A stretch of DNA of 32,000 bases from Clostridia bacterium (lineage in GTDB: Bacteria; Bacillota; Clostridia; Lachnospirales; CAG-274), in assembly GCA_030524425.1 (NCBI GenBank), contig JAUNGN010000017.1, positions 19,689-51,688 of the forward strand, read 5' to 3'. The position numbers were made by a program, and so were the translations under genes. The notes below the pieces were generated by a model, which saw nothing but the letters and a program-made list of their open reading frames with translations, made no database searches and was not told the DNA's origin. Position 1 is the first letter of the stretch; every line of letters starts with the position of its first letter. Of this stretch, positions 5,827 to 32,000 are shown one piece after another.

Positions 5827-7298
5827 TGAAAAGTAGTGAGTATTGGGCTAAAAGGTTTAAGGCTTTAGAGGAAAGGTCAAATGCGGAAGCACAAAAGTGT
5901 GCGGCTGAGTCGATGAAGCTTTTAGATGATGCTATTGTACAAATAGATAAGGACATTACATATTGGCTGAAACGATTTGCAGATAATAACGAAATGACCT
6001 TGGCAGAGGCAAAGAAGGCAATAACAAATAAAGAGCTTAAAGAACTTGGCTGGGATGTTGAGGAATATATAAGAAAAGGCTACGCCAATACCTATCTGGG
6101 CGATTGGAGCACTGAGCTTGAAAATGCAAGTGCCAAATACCATATAACAAGGCTTGACGCTATTAAATTTCAGATTCAGAAATTTTGTGATGAAGCATTT
6201 GCGGATATTGTTGACAGTATGTCAAAGAGCCTTTCAAACGTATATGAAGATGTTTATTATAGGACAGCCTTTGAGGTACAAAAAGGTATGGGAGTAGGAT
6301 TCAGCTTTGCACAGGTTGATGAAAACAAGCTAAAAATGATACTTGAAAGACCTTGGGCTGTTGACGGAGCTAATTTTTCCCAAAGAGTTTGGGGAACCTA
6401 CAGACCAAAGCTTACTAATAAACTTCAGCAGGCATTGACCGATTGGTGTGTAAGAGGTACAGACCCTAAAAGGCTTGCGAGAAAGCTAAGCTATGAAAGC
6501 GATGTAGCCCAATCAGCGTGCAATAGGCTTATACATACGGAGACATCTCAGATATGTACAAGAGCTGAAATGGATAGCTATGACGAATTAGGAGTTGAAA
6601 AGTATAGAATACTTGAAACATTAGACGGTAAGACCTGTGAGATATGCGGCGATATGGACAGTAAGATATTTAACCGAAATGATTTTGAGGTTGGTGTTAC
6701 AGCACCGCCCTTCCATCCAAGCTGCCGTGGAACTACAGTACCTGAAGTTGATGATGAGCTTTTGAAAAAAGGTAGAAAGCGAGCAGCCCGAGATGAAAAT
6801 GGTAAAACTGTTTATATTGATGATATGTCGTATAATGAATGGAAAGAAAAATTTGTTAGTAATGACCAGTTTACAAATCTAAGCAATAACGATATAATAA
6901 AATCAGGTAAAGAATTATATAGAAAAAATTCTAATTTAGGAGCTTTTTCAGGGCTTCCTGAAAGAATGAGTAAAAAGCATATTCGTGATATAGCTAATGA
7001 GTTTAATGTTGATATATCAGGGCTTAAGTTAAACATTGATGCTTCCGAAGAATTATTGAAATATGTAATTACAGGAGAAGCGGTTCCAGAAGAAATTGGG
7101 AAAATAACATTCTTTCCAAATGCGTTTAGAAGTAAAGAGGAATTGCTACGAACATTAGTCCACGAAAAAGAACACGTTCAGCAGTTTAAAGAATTTGGTG
7201 CAGAGTTTGTTCAAAATAATATGGCGCATTTTGAAAAGCTCGCCTATGAGAAAGAAAACTTATTTATTGAAAAAGCAAAAAAGGATGGACTTTTATGA
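5826..7298 (+). CDS. MuF/SPP1 gp7-family head morphogenesis protein with a ~180-aa C-terminal extension carrying an HExxH motif
   Basis: The MuF core includes LIHTETSQ… and GKTCEICGDMD…PPFHPSCRGTTVPEV (F296 at nt 6711). The extension runs aa ~310-490, with LVHEKEHVQQ at nt 7161-7175. Confidence 0.85.
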   Translation: MKSSEYWAKRFKALEERSNAEAQKCAAESMKLLDDAIVQIDKDITYWLKRFADNNEMTLAEAKKAITNKELKELGWDVEEYIRKGYANTYLGDWSTELENASAKYHITRLDAIKFQIQKFCDEAFADIVDSMSKSLSNVYEDVYYRTAFEVQKGMGVGFSFAQVDENKLKMILERPWAVDGANFSQRVWGTYRPKLTNKLQQALTDWCVRGTDPKRLARKLSYESDVAQSACNRLIHTETSQICTRAEMDSYDELGVEKYRILETLDGKTCEICGDMDSKIFNRNDFEVGVTAPPFHPSCRGTTVPEVDDELLKKGRKRAARDENGKTVYIDDMSYNEWKEKFVSNDQFTNLSNNDIIKSGKELYRKNSNLGAFSGLPERMSKKHIRDIANEFNVDISGLKLNIDASEELLKYVITGEAVPEEIGKITFFPNAFRSKEELLRTLVHEKEHVQQFKEFGAEFVQNNMAHFEKLAYEKENLFIEKAKKDGLL

Positions 7299-26134: not shown

Positions 26135-26977
26135 ATGAACATAATAGATGATTATTTGCCCGTCAATAAATATTCCCGTCCCGGTACGAAAATTAAGCCG
26201 ACAAAAATAGCCGTTCATTATGTAGGCAATGCAGGCAGCTCAGCAAAGGGTAACAGAAATTATTTTGCAAGTGGGAAGGTTTATGCCAGCTCACATTACA
26301 TAATCGGATTAAACGGAGAAATACTTAGATTAATTCCAGAGGATGAAATAAGTTATTGTACCAATCAGGCAAACAGCTATACAATATCTATTGAGTGTTG
26401 TCATCCGGATAACTCAGGTAAATTTAATACTGCAACTTTAAATTCCCTTATTGAATTGTGCACAGATATTTGTAAGCGCAGGAATTTCAGCCCTCTTAAG
26501 GATATTATAAGACATTACGATGTAACACAAAAAGCTTGCCCTTTATGGTGGGCTCCTAATGGACCTAATAAGAATGCAAATTCTGATTTTAATGCTTTTA
26601 AATCAGCTGTGGCTGAATTTATGGAATCCGGTAATAAAATAGTTAAGGCGGACATAGAAGTGATTACAGAGACAAATATAAAGATAAATGGCAAGGTCAT
26701 CAAAATAAACAGAATACTTAAAGATGATAAAAATTATATTGACCTCAGAGGTCTTGAGGCTGCTGGTTTCAAGGTTGGCTTCGATACAAATACAAAACTA
26801 TTGATTTTAAATAATAAAGTCTCAGAATTACCAATTAATGTTGACGGTAAGGAAACAAGTGTTGAGGCAATAAATATTGAGGGTAATAATTATGTGCCTA
26901 TCAGGAGTATTGCCTCTGCAACTGAGACTTTTGATGTGGGTTACATCAACGGTGATGTTGTTATTAATAAGAAATAA
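26135..26977 (+). CDS. Endolysin: N-acetylmuramoyl-L-alanine amidase (Amidase_2/PGRP) with a C-terminal copper-amine-oxidase-N-like wall-binding domain
   Basis: Amidase motifs: IAVHYVGNAG, SSHYIIG, SISIECCHPD, HYDVTQKACP. The C-terminal pattern IKINGKVI…NYIDLRGL…EGNNYVPIRSIA is also present. ATG 26135 lies 8 nt after AAGGAG. Confidence 0.92.
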   Translation: MNIIDDYLPVNKYSRPGTKIKPTKIAVHYVGNAGSSAKGNRNYFASGKVYASSHYIIGLNGEILRLIPEDEISYCTNQANSYTISIECCHPDNSGKFNTATLNSLIELCTDICKRRNFSPLKDIIRHYDVTQKACPLWWAPNGPNKNANSDFNAFKSAVAEFMESGNKIVKADIEVITETNIKINGKVIKINRILKDDKNYIDLRGLEAAGFKVGFDTNTKLLILNNKVSELPINVDGKETSVEAINIEGNNYVPIRSIASATETFDVGYINGDVVINKK

Positions 26978-26982
26978 TTTTT

Positions 26983-27010
26983 GAGGCGCTTCGGCGCCTC
27001 TTTTTTATTT
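26983..27010 (+). terminator. Strong rho-independent terminator ending the late operon
   Basis: GAGGCGC-ttcg-GCGCCTC followed by TTTTTTATTTT. Confidence 0.9.
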
Positions 27011-27037
27011 TGCTTGGTATTAAGCAATTATGCTTGC

Positions 27038-27116
27038 AAACTGCACAGAAATTGATTATAAACTCTGTGTGGAATATCAGTATACAAATTTAAGCGGCCA
27101 CGCTATAATTATTAAT
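27038..27116 (+). promoter_or_regulatory. Early promoter/operator repeat, copy A (diverged; closest to copy D)
   Basis: Perfect TATAAT at 27104-27109 and TATACA 17 bp upstream. The TTGCTT-N6-AAGCAA palindrome lies at 27010-27027, just upstream of this interval. The copy aligns with copy D (TGCACAG…AAACTCTGT…TTTAAGC…CACGCTATAAT). Confidence 0.65.
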
Positions 27117-27135
27117 GTAAATTATTTTAAGGGAG

Positions 27136-27330
27136 GTGGTAAACTTGGGCTTAAGGGAAAAACGACTTGAGAAGGGCTGGACACTTAAAGAACTTTCGGA
27201 GAGGTCTGGCGTACATTTAGTTAAAATTCAACAGATAGAAAGCGGAAAAATCAAAGCTGAGAATATGTCACTCAGAAATGCTGAAAAGCTTGCCAAAGCT
27301 TTAGGATGTCCGACTAGTGACCTTCTGTAA
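27136..27330 (+). CDS. XRE-family helix-turn-helix transcriptional regulator
   Basis: WTLKELSERSGVHLVKIQQIESGK is the classic HTH_3 motif. The true start may be TTG 27145, 8 nt after GGGAGG. Confidence 0.85.
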   Translation: MVNLGLREKRLEKGWTLKELSERSGVHLVKIQQIESGKIKAENMSLRNAEKLAKALGCPTSDLL

Positions 27331-27416
27331 AAATTGCATAGCAAAATTGCTTAAATTCCGTGTAAAACGTCGGCATACAAATGCCGAAAAACACGACATA
27401 ATAATATATGTAAGGT
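27331..27416 (+). promoter_or_regulatory. Early promoter/operator repeat, copy B
   Basis: Near-identical to copies E, F and G. It has TTGC-ata-GCAA-aa-TTGC, a CGGCAT-acaa-ATGCCG hairpin, CATAAT at 27397-27402, and GTAAG 8 nt downstream. Confidence 0.7.
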
Positions 27417-27476
27417 GCAAGTGAGTAATCGTTACAATTTCAGGCTGCTCACTTGATATGAAAGGAAGTGAGGACT

Positions 27477-27623
27477 ATGAAATTGCCAAATGCAACAGAA
27501 ATGATTGAAAAGCTTGCTAAAGAAAGTGCTATTAAGGATATTTACATAATGGCTCTCGAAGCAAAGCAAAATGGCCAAAGCTTTGATGATTTTATCAAAG
27601 AGCTTGAAGCCTTAAAGAAGTAA
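27477..27623 (+). CDS. Small protein (48 aa), paralogue of 31234-31386; below the ORF-track length cutoff
   Basis: It has a GGAAGTGAGGA RBS. It shares the blocks …AK…K(D/E)IYI.ALEA…G…(D/E)F(I/V)KELEAL with the other copy. Confidence 0.6.
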   Translation: MKLPNATEMIEKLAKESAIKDIYIMALEAKQNGQSFDDFIKELEALKK

Positions 27624-27669
27624 AAAAAGATAGCCGAGCTAGTGAAGTTCTTGTCGGCTATCTAAAACC

Positions 27670-27727
27670 AAAAAGCGAGCTCTGAGAGCGCAAACCTTAC
27701 TGCCCCTCAGTGTTCGCTTTTTATTAT
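27670..27727 (+). terminator. Extended hairpin plus U-tract; probable terminator of cassette 2
   Basis: An outer stem AAAAAGCGA/TCGCTTTTT and an inner stem CTGAG/CTCAG are followed by TTTTTATTAT. Confidence 0.5.
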
Positions 27728-27784
27728 ACCTCAAAATTGCCAATTTGTAAACTCTAATTTGAAATGTTTTATTGTAAGCCCTGC

Positions 27785-27864
27785 TCAGCAAAATTGCTTA
27801 AATTTCGTGTAAAACGTCGGCATACAGACGCTGAAAAACACGGCATAATAATGTATGTAAGGGC
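27785..27864 (+). promoter_or_regulatory. Early promoter/operator repeat, copy C (5'-truncated)
   Basis: AGCAAAATTGCTTAAATTTCGTGTAAAACGTCGGCATACAGACGCTGAAAAACACGGCATAATAATGTATGTAAG. Confidence 0.65.
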
Positions 27865-27891
27865 GAGTAAACATAAAGGAGATTTATACTA

Positions 27892-28170
27892 ATGAAATTT
27901 AAAATTTATGAACAACAAATATTTAATAACTCAAAAACATACTTATTAGCTGATTTTGGTTTTACATCAAATGATGAAAAAGCAAAACAAATATTTATAT
28001 CAACCATAAAATCTCAAAAAAATTTAATTGACTATATAAATACAAGAAAACTTAAAGAAAATATTGATATTACTTATATACTTTATAACTGTGATACAAA
28101 CAATATCATTTTAAAATTAATACCTACTTCTAATAATCTTATTAACTCTAAAACTGGTGAACTTATTTAA
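27892..28170 (+). CDS. Hypothetical protein (92 aa), extremely AT-rich
   Basis: It has an AAAGGAG RBS. By eye the G+C content is roughly one-fifth, well below the rest of the window. No family recognised. Confidence 0.55.
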   Translation: MKFKIYEQQIFNNSKTYLLADFGFTSNDEKAKQIFISTIKSQKNLIDYINTRKLKENIDITYILYNCDTNNIILKLIPTSNNLINSKTGELI

Positions 28171-28222
28171 TTATTACTCTTGCCCTTACTTATTCTAAAT
28201 TTAAAAAAGCTTAAGTCGTAAG

Positions 28223-28300
28223 AATTGCACAGCAAAGTTGCTAAAACTCTGTATGAAACGTCAGCATACGAGTTTAAGCAAACACGCTATAATAAATATA
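28223..28300 (+). promoter_or_regulatory. Early promoter/operator repeat, copy D (diverged)
   Basis: TTGC-aca-GCAA-ag-TTGC and a perfect TATAAT at 28288-28293. Confidence 0.65.
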
Positions 28301-28337
28301 TCAAATGAAACAAAACAACTTTTTACGGAGGTACATT

Positions 28338-29129
28338 ATGAAAAACTTAAATGAAATGACAGCTAAGGAGCTTAAGGAAATGGCTAAAGAGCTTAAGGTT
28401 GCAAACTGGTGGAATTTAAAGAAGTCTGAACTTATTTCTGGCATTGAGATGGCTTCCAATTCAGAAACCAATTCTGATAAAACTGACGAGAGTGAAGAAT
28501 TTGAGACTAATATTATAGAAGAAACAGTAAACGAGCCTATGAAGATGAGCGATACAATCACTATTTTAGAGGATATGTTTGACAAGCTTAACGCAATTTA
28601 TTTTGAAGATGCATTGCCTAAGCCTGTTATTACTGTGCAGTCTACACCTAAGGCATACGGTCATTGCTCAACTAAAAAAATTTGGAAGGCTGGTGACAAC
28701 GAGGCTATGTATGAGATTAACCTTGGTGCTGAGTTTATAAACAGACCTATTCAGGAAACTGCAGCAACCCTTACTCACGAGATGATACATCTTTATTGTA
28801 TTGTTAATGAGATTGCAGACACCTGCCAAAATGGCAGATACCACAATAAGACATTTAAGCTTGAGGCTGAAGCAAGAGACCTTGAGGCTGGGTATGACCG
28901 TGCAAATGGCTATACACATACAGCCCCAACTGAAACCTTTGTTAATAAGATTACTGAGGCTGGTATTAATATGACAATCAGATTTGCGCGCATTCTTAAA
29001 GCTCCTATAAAAAGAGAAAGAAACAAGCAATATAAATATGTTTGTCCTGTTTGCGGTCAGTATGTTAAGTCAGCATCTGAATTGCATATTAAATGCGCTA
29101 ATTGCGATGCGGAAATGATACGCAAATAA
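28338..29129 (+). CDS. SprT-like zinc metalloprotease with an N-terminal SAP/Rho-N-like motif and a C-terminal zinc ribbon
   Basis: LTHEMIHLYC is the HExxH motif and NGRYHNKTFKLEAE follows it. The N-terminus is AKELKEMAKELKVANWWNLKKSELISGIE. The C-terminus has CPVCG…CANCD. ATG 28338 follows GGAGG. Confidence 0.8.
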   Translation: MKNLNEMTAKELKEMAKELKVANWWNLKKSELISGIEMASNSETNSDKTDESEEFETNIIEETVNEPMKMSDTITILEDMFDKLNAIYFEDALPKPVITVQSTPKAYGHCSTKKIWKAGDNEAMYEINLGAEFINRPIQETAATLTHEMIHLYCIVNEIADTCQNGRYHNKTFKLEAEARDLEAGYDRANGYTHTAPTETFVNKITEAGINMTIRFARILKAPIKRERNKQYKYVCPVCGQYVKSASELHIKCANCDAEMIRK

Positions 29130-29130
29130 C

Positions 29131-29412
29131 TGAAGCACTTTGGGTAGCAGTTTAATTTTAATCTGCTGAACTGCTACCAAGCCAATCAGCAGTTACAGCA
29201 GTTTAAAACAAACTGCTTCAACAACTGCTTCAGCCGAAAGCCTTTTGTTTCCTAAGCAAATTAAGCTTTACAGCAGTTACAGCAGTTTTTTATCTATATA
29301 CTTTAAAAAGTAAGATTAAAGAGTAAATGCTTAATTTTACATTCTTTAATTGCTATTTTAAAAGTTTATAGGATTTTACTGCTGAACTGCTGAAACTGCT
29401 ACCAATATAAAA
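29131..29412. repeat. Iteron-rich block, copy 2 (281 bp)
   Basis: Same sequence as 159-431, with an extra GCTGAAACT-type 9-bp unit at ~29389-29397. It starts 1 nt after the SprT stop and ends at the RBS of the 29427 gene. Confidence 0.9.
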
Positions 29413-29426
29413 TGGGAGGTGAAATT

Positions 29427-29612
29427 ATGACGGATAAAATCAAAGAGCAAATTATTGCAATTAGAGAAAGTGGCTTGACAAATATGTTTGATATAAGGGA
29501 AGTTAAGAGGCTTGCAAAAGAAAGAAGATTTTTTGAGCTTATAGATTATATAGAAGATTATCAGGACCGATATGTTGCCTTTATATTCAATAGTAATAAG
29601 AATAAACCGTAA
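29427..29612 (+). CDS. Small DUF5049-like protein (61 aa)
   Basis: It has a GGGAGGTG RBS. The pattern IIAIRESGLTNMFDIREVKRLAKERRFFELIDYIE matches what I recall of the DUF5049 phage family. Confidence 0.6.
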   Translation: MTDKIKEQIIAIRESGLTNMFDIREVKRLAKERRFFELIDYIEDYQDRYVAFIFNSNKNKP

Positions 29613-29698
29613 AAATTGCATAGCAAAATTGCTTAAATTCCGTGTAAAACGTCGGCATACAAATGCCGAAAAACACGGCATAATAATATATGTAAGAT
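29612..29698 (+). promoter_or_regulatory. Early promoter/operator repeat, copy E
   Basis: Near-identical to copies B, F and G. It begins at the last base of the stop codon (29610-29612) of the preceding gene. Confidence 0.7.
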
Positions 29699-29735
29699 AC
29701 AAAAAAACACATACATTATTATGGAGGTAATTCAA

Positions 29736-30611
29736 ATGAAAAATCAGACTTTTGGAATTGAAATTGAGACAAGCGGTATTACAAGACAGAGAGCGGCTGA
29801 GCTTATTGCTAATTACTTTGGAACTGAAGCAAGCCATTATGGTGGAAGTTATGACAAGTATATAGCAAGAGATAATAAAGGACGTTACTGGGCTTGTGTA
29901 TTCGACTCATCAATTATTGCACAGTCACGTGCAACAAAATGCGAGGTCGTAAGCCCTATTCTTACTTATGATGATATTTCAGACCTTCAGGAGATAGTAA
30001 GAATATTAAGAAAAAATGGGGCTAAGTCAAGCCCAAGCAGGCAGTGTGGCATACATATTCATATTGGTCTTGGTAATCACAATATTAAGACTCTTAAAAA
30101 CTTAGTAAACTATATGAGTTCATATCAGGACCTTATTTACAAAGCTCTCAAAATTACAGATGAACGTCAAAGATGGTGCCAGAAACTAGAGTCTGTTTTG
30201 GTTGATAAGTTCAATGAAAGAGGTCTTGATACTTTTGAAAAGGGTGAAAGTGCTTGGTATGGCAAGGGCTGTGAGAGCGGTAAATACCAACACTACAACC
30301 CAACTCGATACCACGGTTTAAATCTTCATAGCGTATTTTCAAAGGGTACTATAGAATTTAGATTATTCAATGGTACACTTCATGCGGGCGAAATTAGAAG
30401 CTATGTTTGCTTTTGCTTGGCAATGAGTAATTTTGCTTTAGAAAAAAGGTCAATAAGGAGAGCCCATAAAAATCAATTCAATGATAAGTATACTATGTAT
30501 GAGATGCTTTGCAGAATAGGTATTAAGGGAGAGGAATTTAAGGTTGTAAGGGACCATCTTACTAAACATCTTTCAGGAAGCCTTACTCATGAAGGTAGAT
30601 ACATAATATAG
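29736..30611 (+). CDS. Amidoligase_2-family COOH-NH2 ligase (glutamine-synthetase/GCS2-like fold)
   Basis: Four blocks are characteristic of the 'putative amidoligase enzyme' family: FGIEIETSG, CGIHIHIGLG, RYHGLNLH and TIEFRLFNGTLH. ATG 29736 follows GGAGG. Confidence 0.85.
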   Translation: MKNQTFGIEIETSGITRQRAAELIANYFGTEASHYGGSYDKYIARDNKGRYWACVFDSSIIAQSRATKCEVVSPILTYDDISDLQEIVRILRKNGAKSSPSRQCGIHIHIGLGNHNIKTLKNLVNYMSSYQDLIYKALKITDERQRWCQKLESVLVDKFNERGLDTFEKGESAWYGKGCESGKYQHYNPTRYHGLNLHSVFSKGTIEFRLFNGTLHAGEIRSYVCFCLAMSNFALEKRSIRRAHKNQFNDKYTMYEMLCRIGIKGEEFKVVRDHLTKHLSGSLTHEGRYII

Positions 30612-30663
30612 AGTTAATGAGAGCTTGCAGTTTTGCAAGCTCTCAAAAAAAGAGGTGTAAGTT

Positions 30664-31110
30664 ATGAAATTATATATTGCTTATGGCAGTAACTTAAATT
30701 TAGGACAAATGGAACGCAGATGCCCCGGCGCAAAAGTTTTATATAAAGGAATTGTTAAAGATTACTCACTTGTATATCGTGGCTCAAAAACCGGCGCTTA
30801 TGCTACTATCGTTCCCCAAAAAGGTGATTTTGTTCCTGTCGCAGTGTGGGAAATAAATTCTGTACACGAGCGCAGACTTGACATCTATGAAGGCTATCCC
30901 AACTTTTATTATAAAAAAGAACTACCGGTTATATTAGATGATAATAGCCGGATTTGGGGAATGGCTTATATTATGTTTGATGGCGCAAAAACTGGGCGAC
31001 CGTCAGAGGAATATCTAAGGACTTGTTTGAGAGGCTACCTTGATAACGGACTTAATATAAACAAATTTGAAAACTCAATTAAGAATAATGAGAAAGAGCT
31101 GTTGCGGTAA
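30664..31110 (+). CDS. Gamma-glutamyl cyclotransferase-like protein (GGCT/AIG2 fold)
   Basis: It has the N-terminal YGSNLN motif, a catalytic-Glu context DIYEGYP, and a size of ~150 aa. Confidence 0.85.
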   Translation: MKLYIAYGSNLNLGQMERRCPGAKVLYKGIVKDYSLVYRGSKTGAYATIVPQKGDFVPVAVWEINSVHERRLDIYEGYPNFYYKKELPVILDDNSRIWGMAYIMFDGAKTGRPSEEYLRTCLRGYLDNGLNINKFENSIKNNEKELLR

Positions 31111-31196
31111 AAATTGCATAGCAAAATTGCTTAAATTCCGTGTAAAACGTCAGCATACAAATGCAGAAAAACACGGCATAATAATATATGTAAGAC
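31111..31196 (+). promoter_or_regulatory. Early promoter/operator repeat, copy F
   Basis: Near-identical to copies B, E and G. It begins immediately after the GGCT stop codon (31108-31110). Confidence 0.7.
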
Positions 31197-31233
31197 ACAA
31201 GTAAACAACTTGTTTTGAAAGGAAGTGAGGATG

Positions 31234-31386
31234 ATGAAAGAAATGACGCCAACAGAAATTGCTGTTGAGTATGCCAAGGCTGATTTGAAAAAAGAGATTT
31301 ACATAAAAGCTCTTGAGGCTCAAAAAGCCGGCAAAACTCTTCAAGAGTTTGTTAAAGAGCTTGAAGCCTTGGCAACCAGCAAATAA
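31234..31386 (+). CDS. Small protein (50 aa), paralogue of 27477-27623
   Basis: It has the same RBS context (GGAAGTGAGGATG-ATG) and a conserved EIYIKALEA…EFVKELEAL core. It is not in the ORF track because it is too short. Confidence 0.6.
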   Translation: MKEMTPTEIAVEYAKADLKKEIYIKALEAQKAGKTLQEFVKELEALATSK

Positions 31387-31590
31387 AAATAAGATAGCTG
31401 CTCTTGATTACCCAGTCAACCAGCTATCTTAAAGAAACCACACAGCCTTGAGAATGCGAGTCTTACCGTTTCTCTTGGTTGTATGGATTCATTATAACGT
31501 AAAACAATGAAAATGTAAATAGTTTTTTAGGAAGAAAAAATGAAAACAAAAAAAGGAGAGTATTGCATTCGGAGATGATAAGAGCTTGTA

Positions 31591-31677
31591 AGAACTGCAT
31601 AGCAAAATTGCTTAAATTCCGTGTAAAACGTCGGCATACAAATGCAGAAAAACACGGCATAATAATATATGTAAGAT
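31591..31677 (+). promoter_or_regulatory. Early promoter/operator repeat, copy G
   Basis: Near-identical to copies B, E and F. Confidence 0.7.
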
Positions 31678-31710
31678 ACAAAAACACATATTATTAAGGA
31701 GGTACATAAG

Positions 31711-31986
31711 ATGAAAGTTTGGTTTGGCGGTGAATTTAAAAATATTGAAATTGGACAAAAGGTCTTTGTAGGTCATGCAGGTTCTGGACATAGCTGTTTT
31801 GGTGAATACGGAAAGCTTGAGCGCACAACTGTTAAACACCTTGTATTTAGAACTGAGTCCGGTGCAATAATTAAAACGGCAATTGGTAACCTTCATCAGG
31901 TTGTTGGCAAAGCTGGCAAGCAGGGTAATTTTGTAAGCTTATTAATTGAGAGAGAATTTATATATAGCCCGTTGAAGATTTATTAA
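31711..31986 (+). CDS. Hypothetical protein (91 aa)
   Basis: It has an AAGGAGG RBS and follows promoter repeat G. No family recognised. Confidence 0.55.
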   Translation: MKVWFGGEFKNIEIGQKVFVGHAGSGHSCFGEYGKLERTTVKHLVFRTESGAIIKTAIGNLHQVVGKAGKQGNFVSLLIEREFIYSPLKIY

Positions 31987-32000
31987 ATAAAAAAGTGTGT

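Follow-up and report, generated by a model that had tools for sequence, protein, structure and literature searches.

We analysed a 32,000-nucleotide (nt) stretch of phage DNA from a Clostridia bacterium assembly (GCA_030524425.1, contig JAUNGN010000017.1, positions 19,689 to 51,688 of the forward strand; hereafter the window), in which two adjacent genes encode a carboxylate-amine ligase of the Amidoligase_2 family and a gamma-glutamyl cyclotransferase (GGCT). These two genes form a module that is very common in gut phages and conjugative elements. To what had been predicted for it, our survey of related loci adds three points. The GGCT is a near-obligatory follower of the ligase, it is of the dipeptide-specific human type as judged from its sequence and structural model, and the ligase and the GGCT are the only genes that stay constant across phage and conjugative-element contexts. 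Therefore, the question of the module's substrate is reduced to a tractable in vitro experiment.

With regard to novelty, the phage amidoligase-GGCT linkage is a computational prediction of Iyer, Abhiman, Burroughs & Aravind 2009 (Mol Biosyst 5:1636), as cited in PMC11318856, and is part of standard PHROG annotation (phrog_2443 with phrog_2520). The window locus is not a new kind, and the first-pass annotation of this DNA, which had put the pair forward as a candidate uncharacterised system, overrated it in this respect. That annotation knew of no experimentally defined substrate, and our literature search found none; nor did the literature searched contain an experimental characterisation of the pair. 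Annotation of homologous pairs already exists for gut phages of the Ca. Heliusvirales, a lineage described as widespread in the human gut (PMC11283538), as well as for Terrisporobacter phage TPDSL_ph1 and C. clostridioforme prophages. Klebsiella CfmP was considered as a further literature lead and set aside as an unrelated ATP-grasp enzyme.

The ligase and the cyclotransferase

The pair and the intergenic element between its genes are laid out as follows.

29736..30611, + strand: Amidoligase_2 carboxylate-amine ligase with a predicted GCL/YbdK/glutamine-synthetase-like fold (PF12224 match and structural model)
30618..30645, + strand: perfect 12-bp stem-loop between ligase and GGCT, followed by A7
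30664..31110, + strand: gamma-glutamyl cyclotransferase of the human GGCT (C7orf24) type (Pfam GGACT and AIG2_2 matches and structural model)

Both open reading frames (ORFs) lie on the + strand where they had first been annotated, and every motif quoted for them is present, with FGIEIE, CGIHIHIG, RYHGLNLH and TIEFRLFNGT in the ligase and YGSNLN and DIYEGYP in the GGCT. The ligase start had to be corrected. The longest ligase ORF (29721-30611, + strand, 296 amino acids (aa)) begins at the first ATG, at 29721, while the second in-frame ATG, at 29736, has GGAGGT 7 nt upstream. Because of this spacing, and because the homologues are ~291 aa long with the N-terminus MKNQT, the gene most likely spans 29736-30611. 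Ligase residues are numbered throughout on the 296-aa ORF.

The family assignments of the first reading were borne out for both proteins by Pfam, PHROGs and predicted structures searched with Foldseek, which agree with one another. Specifically, the ligase matched Pfam Amidoligase_2 (PF12224) with an E value of 4.5e-59 and 200.7 bits (cut-off 22) over profile positions 1-244 of 245, and phrog_2443 with an E value of 3.3e-84; more than 5,000 amidoligase clusters (90% identity) match at E<=1e-10. Its AlphaFold model, with a predicted local distance difference test (pLDDT) of 93, was matched by Foldseek at a probability of 1.0 to the glutamate-cysteine ligase (GCL) domain of GshF (3ln7), YbdK (1r8g), glutamine synthetases (GS), GmaS and plant GCL (2gwc), and more weakly to Dop, a PafA homologue (rank 32). 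GCL, YbdK, GS, GmaS and Dop each activate the gamma-carboxylate of glutamate by phosphorylation. Ten ligase residues (E14, E16, E75, H112, H114, R196, N201, H203, E212 and R214) did not vary among the 38 to 41 homologues aligned, the most distant of which are 41% identical, and the catalytic apparatus, comprising the putative metal, ATP and acyl-phosphate residues, appears intact. The ligase alignment profile had no match among PDB sequences even at an E value of 10, and residue-level mapping onto GCL or GS was therefore not possible.

The GGCT ORF is 148 aa long, and its ATG is preceded at 7 nt by the ribosome-binding site AGAGGTG. It matched the Pfam families GGACT (PF06094, E 4.6e-12) and AIG2_2 (PF13772, E 4.2e-07) as well as phrog_2520 (E 2.2e-41). 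At the level of individual enzymes, the family profile found human GGCT at an E value of 1.5e-18, as against 0.014 for GGACT. The catalytic residues, which the earlier annotation had proposed to check, are intact here as well. AYGSNL (residues 6-11) aligns on the human YGSNL (residues 22-26), Glu76 on the human catalytic Glu98 (a Gln in entry 3cry) and Tyr82 on the human Tyr105; the YGSNL motif and Glu76 were invariant or nearly so in 40 homologues. The structural model (pLDDT 96) superposes on human GGCT (2i5t/2rbh) with a template-modelling (TM) score of 0.84 and a root-mean-square deviation of 2.0 A, at 29% identity to 2i5t. Alignment and model thus both identify the second protein as a genuine GGCT, of the type acting on gamma-glutamyl amino acids. 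The window GGCT is 100% identical to a protein of a Clostridia metagenome-assembled genome. In the search of representatives, the best-scoring relatives of the phage GGCT were tandem GGCT-GGCT proteins of 300 to 430 aa (P0241-P0256).

In the window the two genes are on the same strand, ligase first, with a 52-nt spacer. The stem-loop in this spacer has a predicted folding energy of -20.3 kcal/mol (z -4.3), and 0 of 200 shuffled sequences folded as well. It was rejected as an intrinsic terminator since A7 comes after it where a U run would be expected, and it may be an mRNA stability or processing element. GC-rich hairpins also occur in the ligase-GGCT intergenic space of two relatives.

Linkage and gene neighbourhoods

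The linkage was surveyed in both directions. The forward survey covered 160 loci of ligase relatives (80 from IMG/VR and 80 from species-representative genomes), whose ligases are 42-63% identical to that of the window except for a single close relative (locus L086, 82%). Among the 149 loci with enough downstream sequence, a GGCT gene followed within 400 nt on the same strand in 127 and within 6 kb in 141. Starting instead from the GGCT, an amidoligase was present within 400 nt upstream in 65 of 67 loci and somewhere in the locus in all 67. The adjacency therefore amounts to 85% seen from the ligase and 97% seen from the GGCT, in phage and conjugative-element backgrounds alike, and the co-conservation that the first-pass annotation had made a test of its proposal is present. 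A library-wide search with the GGCT profile also found a natural fusion of 927 aa (P0258) with the order GGCT-Amidoligase_2-(degenerate GGCT)-GGCT, which by its domain composition is a Rosetta-stone fusion for the ligase and the GGCT. The gene after the amidoligase of FP_Taranis (gp80) was tried as a candidate GGCT and rejected (20% identity, unalignable).

The surroundings of the pair vary. Recurrent upstream neighbours in the surveyed loci were ParB_N plus N6/N4 methylase (56 loci), C5 methylase (36), HNH (24) and MetK (14), and recurrent downstream neighbours were Terminase_4 (50) and TerL (55); in phages, the pair usually lies between DNA methylases and terminase genes. Conjugative elements, recognised by a TraG-type P-loop ATPase, MobL relaxase and DUF6103, accounted for about 17 to 19 of the 160 amidoligase loci (e.g., L106, L114, L121, L135, L137 and L150). 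The pair moves between these element types, and only the ligase and the GGCT are constant in both. The first-pass annotation had read the placement of the pair as fitting a host-takeover or counter-defence role. This found no direct support: neither protein matched a PADLOC defence model, and the pair is also carried by conjugative elements. NCBIfam gave no informative match.

An amidoligase-related paralogue of ~250 to 300 aa was encoded at position -1 or -2 from the ligase in 34 of 132 loci (e.g., L001 3112-3876 and L003 2908-3636); it is absent from the window. It matches phrog_2443, in the same profile region as the ligase, and the ligase hidden Markov model at E values of 1e-9 to 1e-29. 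The similarity is strongest in the C-terminal part, the protein has no Pfam match, and it is without any of the catalytic Glu, His and Arg residues. This dead paralogue may be a non-catalytic partner subunit. Two small families were observed downstream of the GGCT, both of them absent from the window. Both recur at +1 to +3. One is DUF4314 (PF14192), which forms a cluster of 13 loci and is present in L001 in a fused form; the other, 133 aa long and unannotated, stands at +2 in 26 loci. Example coordinates of small genes in this position are L001 5433-5828 and L089 7662-8063.

Several companions were looked for and not found. No small linked protein with a conserved C-terminal Glu or Gln, as expected of a Pup-like tag, was present among the neighbour families of the surveyed loci or in the window cassettes, and no glutathione synthetase, gamma-glutamyl transpeptidase or 5-oxoprolinase was among the recurrent neighbour families. 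An SprT-like protease encoded near the pair in the window (28305-29129) had been taken as meaningful context. Besides a Rho_N/SAP-like domain, it has an SprT-like zincin domain with the motif HEMIH and, at the C-terminus, a CxxC...CxxC zinc ribbon. It accompanies the pair in only 1 of 240 loci, the closest relative (L086, on the same contig as L004), and was rejected as a system component. DUF5049 was likewise rejected (7 of 240 loci).

Proposed chemistry and rival explanations

The logic of the first reading, in which one enzyme writes a gamma-glutamyl amide and the next resolves it, fits both folds, given that the relatives of the ligase activate the glutamate gamma-carboxylate and that the GGCT is nearest to the human enzyme. 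We propose a two-step gamma-glutamyl module. In the first step, as its fold and conserved residues suggest, the ligase would phosphorylate a glutamate-type gamma-carboxylate at the expense of ATP, with Mg2+, and couple an amine to it, yielding gamma-Glu-NH-X. In the second step, for which the similarity to human GGCT and the gene linkage argue, the GGCT would let the free alpha-amine attack the gamma-amide and release 5-oxoproline and X-NH2. The net effect would be either an ATP-driven conversion of glutamate to 5-oxoproline, as in the GCL plus GGCT arm of the gamma-glutamyl cycle, or a transient gamma-glutamyl masking of an amine. As an accessory cassette, the module is portable between Firmicutes phages and conjugative elements, and its expression would be separate from that of the late structural operon. 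For X, a small molecule is the likeliest candidate, either an amino acid or a small amine, because the GGCT is nearest to the human enzyme, which acts on gamma-glutamyl amino acids, no carrier or tag gene is conserved near the pair, and only two genes are constant.

Nonetheless, we believe and doubt this chemistry in about equal measure, and several observations weigh against it. The assignment of roles to the ligase residues is tentative, as it follows from conservation, not from a residue-level superposition. The TM scores of the ligase model are modest (0.35-0.47), and the protein falls short of GCL or GS by ~60 to 150 residues, so that its pocket may be open to macromolecules. About 15% of the related amidoligases, including that of FP_Taranis, are without an adjacent GGCT. 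In other phage lineages PF12224 is paired with a glutamine amidotransferase (GAT), which fits other chemistries (PMC10580990). Finally, the two steps together would amount to a net futile cycle, with no obvious benefit to a phage and less still to a conjugative element.

Other explanations share part of this evidence. It is possible, if unlikely, that the GGCT frees ammonia or an amine from a gamma-glutamyl donor and that the ligase puts this nucleophile on another activated carboxylate, e.g., that of a cell-wall precursor, in the service of envelope modification or superinfection exclusion. Such a supply role would agree with the finding that the GGCT never occurs without the ligase (67/67 loci), with PF12224 beside GATase (PF13522) in the other phage lineages mentioned above (PMC10580990) and with the four-gene set of GAT, amidoligase, ATP-grasp and GGCT in Pseudomonas-type phages (PMC10945688); the cell-wall idea is attributed to Iyer et al. 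2009 where that paper is quoted in PMC11318856 and PMC10580990. However, the coexistence of GAT and GGCT in the four-gene systems means that they are not simple substitutes, and GAT was in the conserved neighbourhood of 0 of 240 surveyed loci. In addition, the structural relatives of the ligase all activate glutamate itself, and no envelope-targeting or membrane gene is conserved near the pair. We consider macromolecular tagging quite unlikely. Here the ligase would gamma-glutamylate lysines of a host or phage protein, or add a Glu-terminated peptide to them, in the manner of the Pup ligase PafA, and the GGCT would edit or remove the mark. The compactness of the ligase, the presence of Dop among its structural matches and the dead paralogue, which could be a specificity subunit, would suit a tagging enzyme, but the paralogue is missing from the window and no Pup-like small protein is linked to the pair. 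The GGCT, moreover, is far nearer in its E value to the dipeptide-specific human enzyme than to GGACT, which acts on epsilon-(gamma-glutamyl)lysine.

Very little speaks to us for a role in nucleic-acid modification or anti-restriction, in which the neighbouring DNA methylases and S-adenosylmethionine synthetase would be joined by the pair in acting on an amine of DNA or of a nucleotide. The recurrent upstream methylases and MetK, and the occurrence of the pair in both phages and conjugative elements, as is typical of anti-restriction genes, are consistent with it. Nevertheless, the methylases differ in kind and distance, are absent beside the window pair and look like co-residents of an accessory hot spot, and a stable DNA mark would hardly call for an eraser right behind its writer. 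We know of no characterised DNA hypermodification pathway with a GS-fold ligase or a GGCT. That the two genes are mere neighbours in a shuffled accessory region, with no functional link, is hardly credible. It is true that the window pair sits among repeat-bounded cassettes that clearly exchange genes, but the adjacency holds across loci whose ligases are only 42 to 63% identical and in both element backgrounds, and the fusion protein P0258 joins the two domains; the survey already contradicts this explanation.

The role of the module may lie in host takeover, counter-defence, exclusion or metabolism, and what it would mean depends on its product. If the product or target were a host metabolite or an immune signal, the pair would represent a new kind of effector of phages and of integrative and conjugative elements; if it did nothing but cycle glutamate to 5-oxoproline, the interest would be modest. 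As a more specific and rather doubtful extension, the pair may be a self-contained write-and-cyclise device of gut Firmicutes phages and conjugative elements that are establishing themselves in a new cell. It would gamma-glutamylate one specific host amine (e.g., a metabolite, a signal or a precursor), or drain glutamate and ATP into 5-oxoproline, and thereby rewire or disarm the recipient, with the dead paralogue as a specificity or regulatory subunit in a quarter of the lineages. If true, mobile elements would thus possess a metabolic effector of a new class.

The cassette array and comparison with known systems

The window belongs to a myovirus-like phage, with genes for an SNF2-type helicase, TerL, portal, major capsid protein, tail sheath, tape measure and endolysin. 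A nucleotide search of GenBank phages with the cassette region gave no match, and relatives in isolated or curated phages were found at the protein level only (<=51% identity). The features that surround the pair are the following.

26983-27000: terminator after the endolysin gene
27081-27109: sigma-70-like promoter TATACA-17-TATAAT, which heads the cassette array
27136-27330: XRE/Cro-type helix-turn-helix (HTH) gene, 64 aa, which follows the promoter
29609..29712, + strand: copy 4 of a 104-nt repeat, directly upstream of the ligase ribosome-binding site; left cassette boundary
31107..31210, + strand: copy 5 of the 104-nt repeat, which begins at the GGCT stop codon; right cassette boundary

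The pair had been described as driven by a promoter repeat. The repeat is real, a 104-nt element in six copies (at 27327, 27774, 28218, 29609, 31107 and 31588), each of them before a small cassette. The GGCT stop codon TAA lies inside the conserved GTAA that opens the repeat, and the same applies to the stop codons of the DUF5049 gene (29610-12) and of the HTH gene (27328-30). The repeat is a putative promoter-like or leader element in which no sigma-70 promoter is recognisable: the sigma-70 scan does not call it, and its best reading is CATACA-17-CATAAT (8 of 12). Rfam gave nothing credible in 26900-32000, the repeat included, and neither IMG/VR nor the 165 collected loci contained an exact match to the repeat core. 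A homologous 88-nt element is present in the closest relative (L004/L086, ligase 82% identical) in seven copies (L004 5452-14663), one of them directly before its ligase. Between the predicted stems of the window and L004 elements, which represent two independent lineages only, there are four compensatory pairs as well as G-U pairs (TTGCAT/GTGTAA to CCGCAT/GTGCGG and AGCA/TGCT to AGCG/CGCT). These compensatory changes and G-U pairs speak for an RNA structure on the + strand more than for a plain promoter. The element may be a promoter plus stem-loop, like the promoter-early stem-loop (PeSL) of T4, or an intercistronic RNA element in a transcript from 27081. It is plausible that the cassette array is an early transcription unit, the best hint being the promoter and HTH gene right after the endolysin terminator.

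Two further repeated sequences were observed in this region. A multi-copy gene of ~51 to 53 aa is repeated together with the 104-nt element (27468-27623 and 31225-31386) and shares the core ...EIYI(M/K)ALEA.K.G.(S/T)..(D/E)F(I/V)KELEAL...; L004 has five copies (at 6544, 7928, 11867, 12298 and 14764), and no family match was found in Pfam, PHROGs or PADLOC. In addition, a 261-nt perfectly identical direct repeat occurs at 159-419 and 29131-29391, 28,972 nt apart. Iteron-like motifs of the form CAGCAGTT(A/T) recur in it several times, in either orientation. Endonuclease and helicase genes follow one copy, and the DUF5049 gene follows the other. A circular wrap-around of the window was rejected as its origin, given that the flanks differ. 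The two copies could share a regulatory or origin-like function, with gene conversion preserving their identity, or they could result from an assembly artefact.

The PeSLs of T4-type phages are mobile regulatory cassettes. The window resembles them in that near-identical repeats of ~100 nt with predicted stem-loops bracket small accessory cassettes in a plastic region. It differs in host and phage type and has no sequence relationship to them, and any promoter activity of the window repeat is only putative.

With regard to the pair itself, the closest known systems are the predicted Amidoligase_2 systems annotated as phrog_2443 plus phrog_2520. They have the same two families in the same order and are likewise mobile-element accessory modules without an experimentally defined substrate. 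Compared with them, the window holds a minimal two-gene form, without the class II GAT (GAT-II) and ATP-grasp genes of the phiEco32 and Pseudomonas-phage versions and without the dead paralogue of about a quarter of the Firmicutes amidoligase loci. Its location also differs: instead of standing just upstream of terS, the window pair occupies a repeat-bounded cassette that comes after the lysis genes of a myovirus-like phage. Pupylation (PafA/Dop) has in common with the proposed chemistry a GS/GCL-fold ligase that acts on the glutamate gamma-carboxylate, and the window ligase model matches Dop weakly; in contrast, there is no Pup-like tag gene here, and the partner is a cyclotransferase, not a Dop-type deamidase/depupylase.

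In the GCL plus GGCT arm of the gamma-glutamyl cycle, glutamate and ATP are turned into 5-oxoproline by way of a gamma-glutamyl amino acid. The window ligase has the predicted GCL/YbdK fold, and the window GGCT keeps the catalytic residues of human GGCT at 29% identity. The window pair differs from this arm in that no glutathione synthetase, transpeptidase or 5-oxoprolinase is linked to it and in that its ligase is without a sequence-level match to solved GCL or GS; in addition, anaerobic Clostridia are generally without glutathione. A last parallel comes from butirosin biosynthesis, where the ATP-dependent ligase BtrJ puts a gamma-glutamyl group on an amine and the GGCT-fold enzyme BtrG afterwards takes it off again in the form of 5-oxoproline. 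BtrJ has an ATP-grasp fold instead of a GS fold, and butirosin requires a carrier protein and an acyltransferase, neither of which is conserved near the pair. The likeness is in the chemistry that we propose for the window pair, in which a gamma-glutamyl group would be put on and then taken off as 5-oxoproline.

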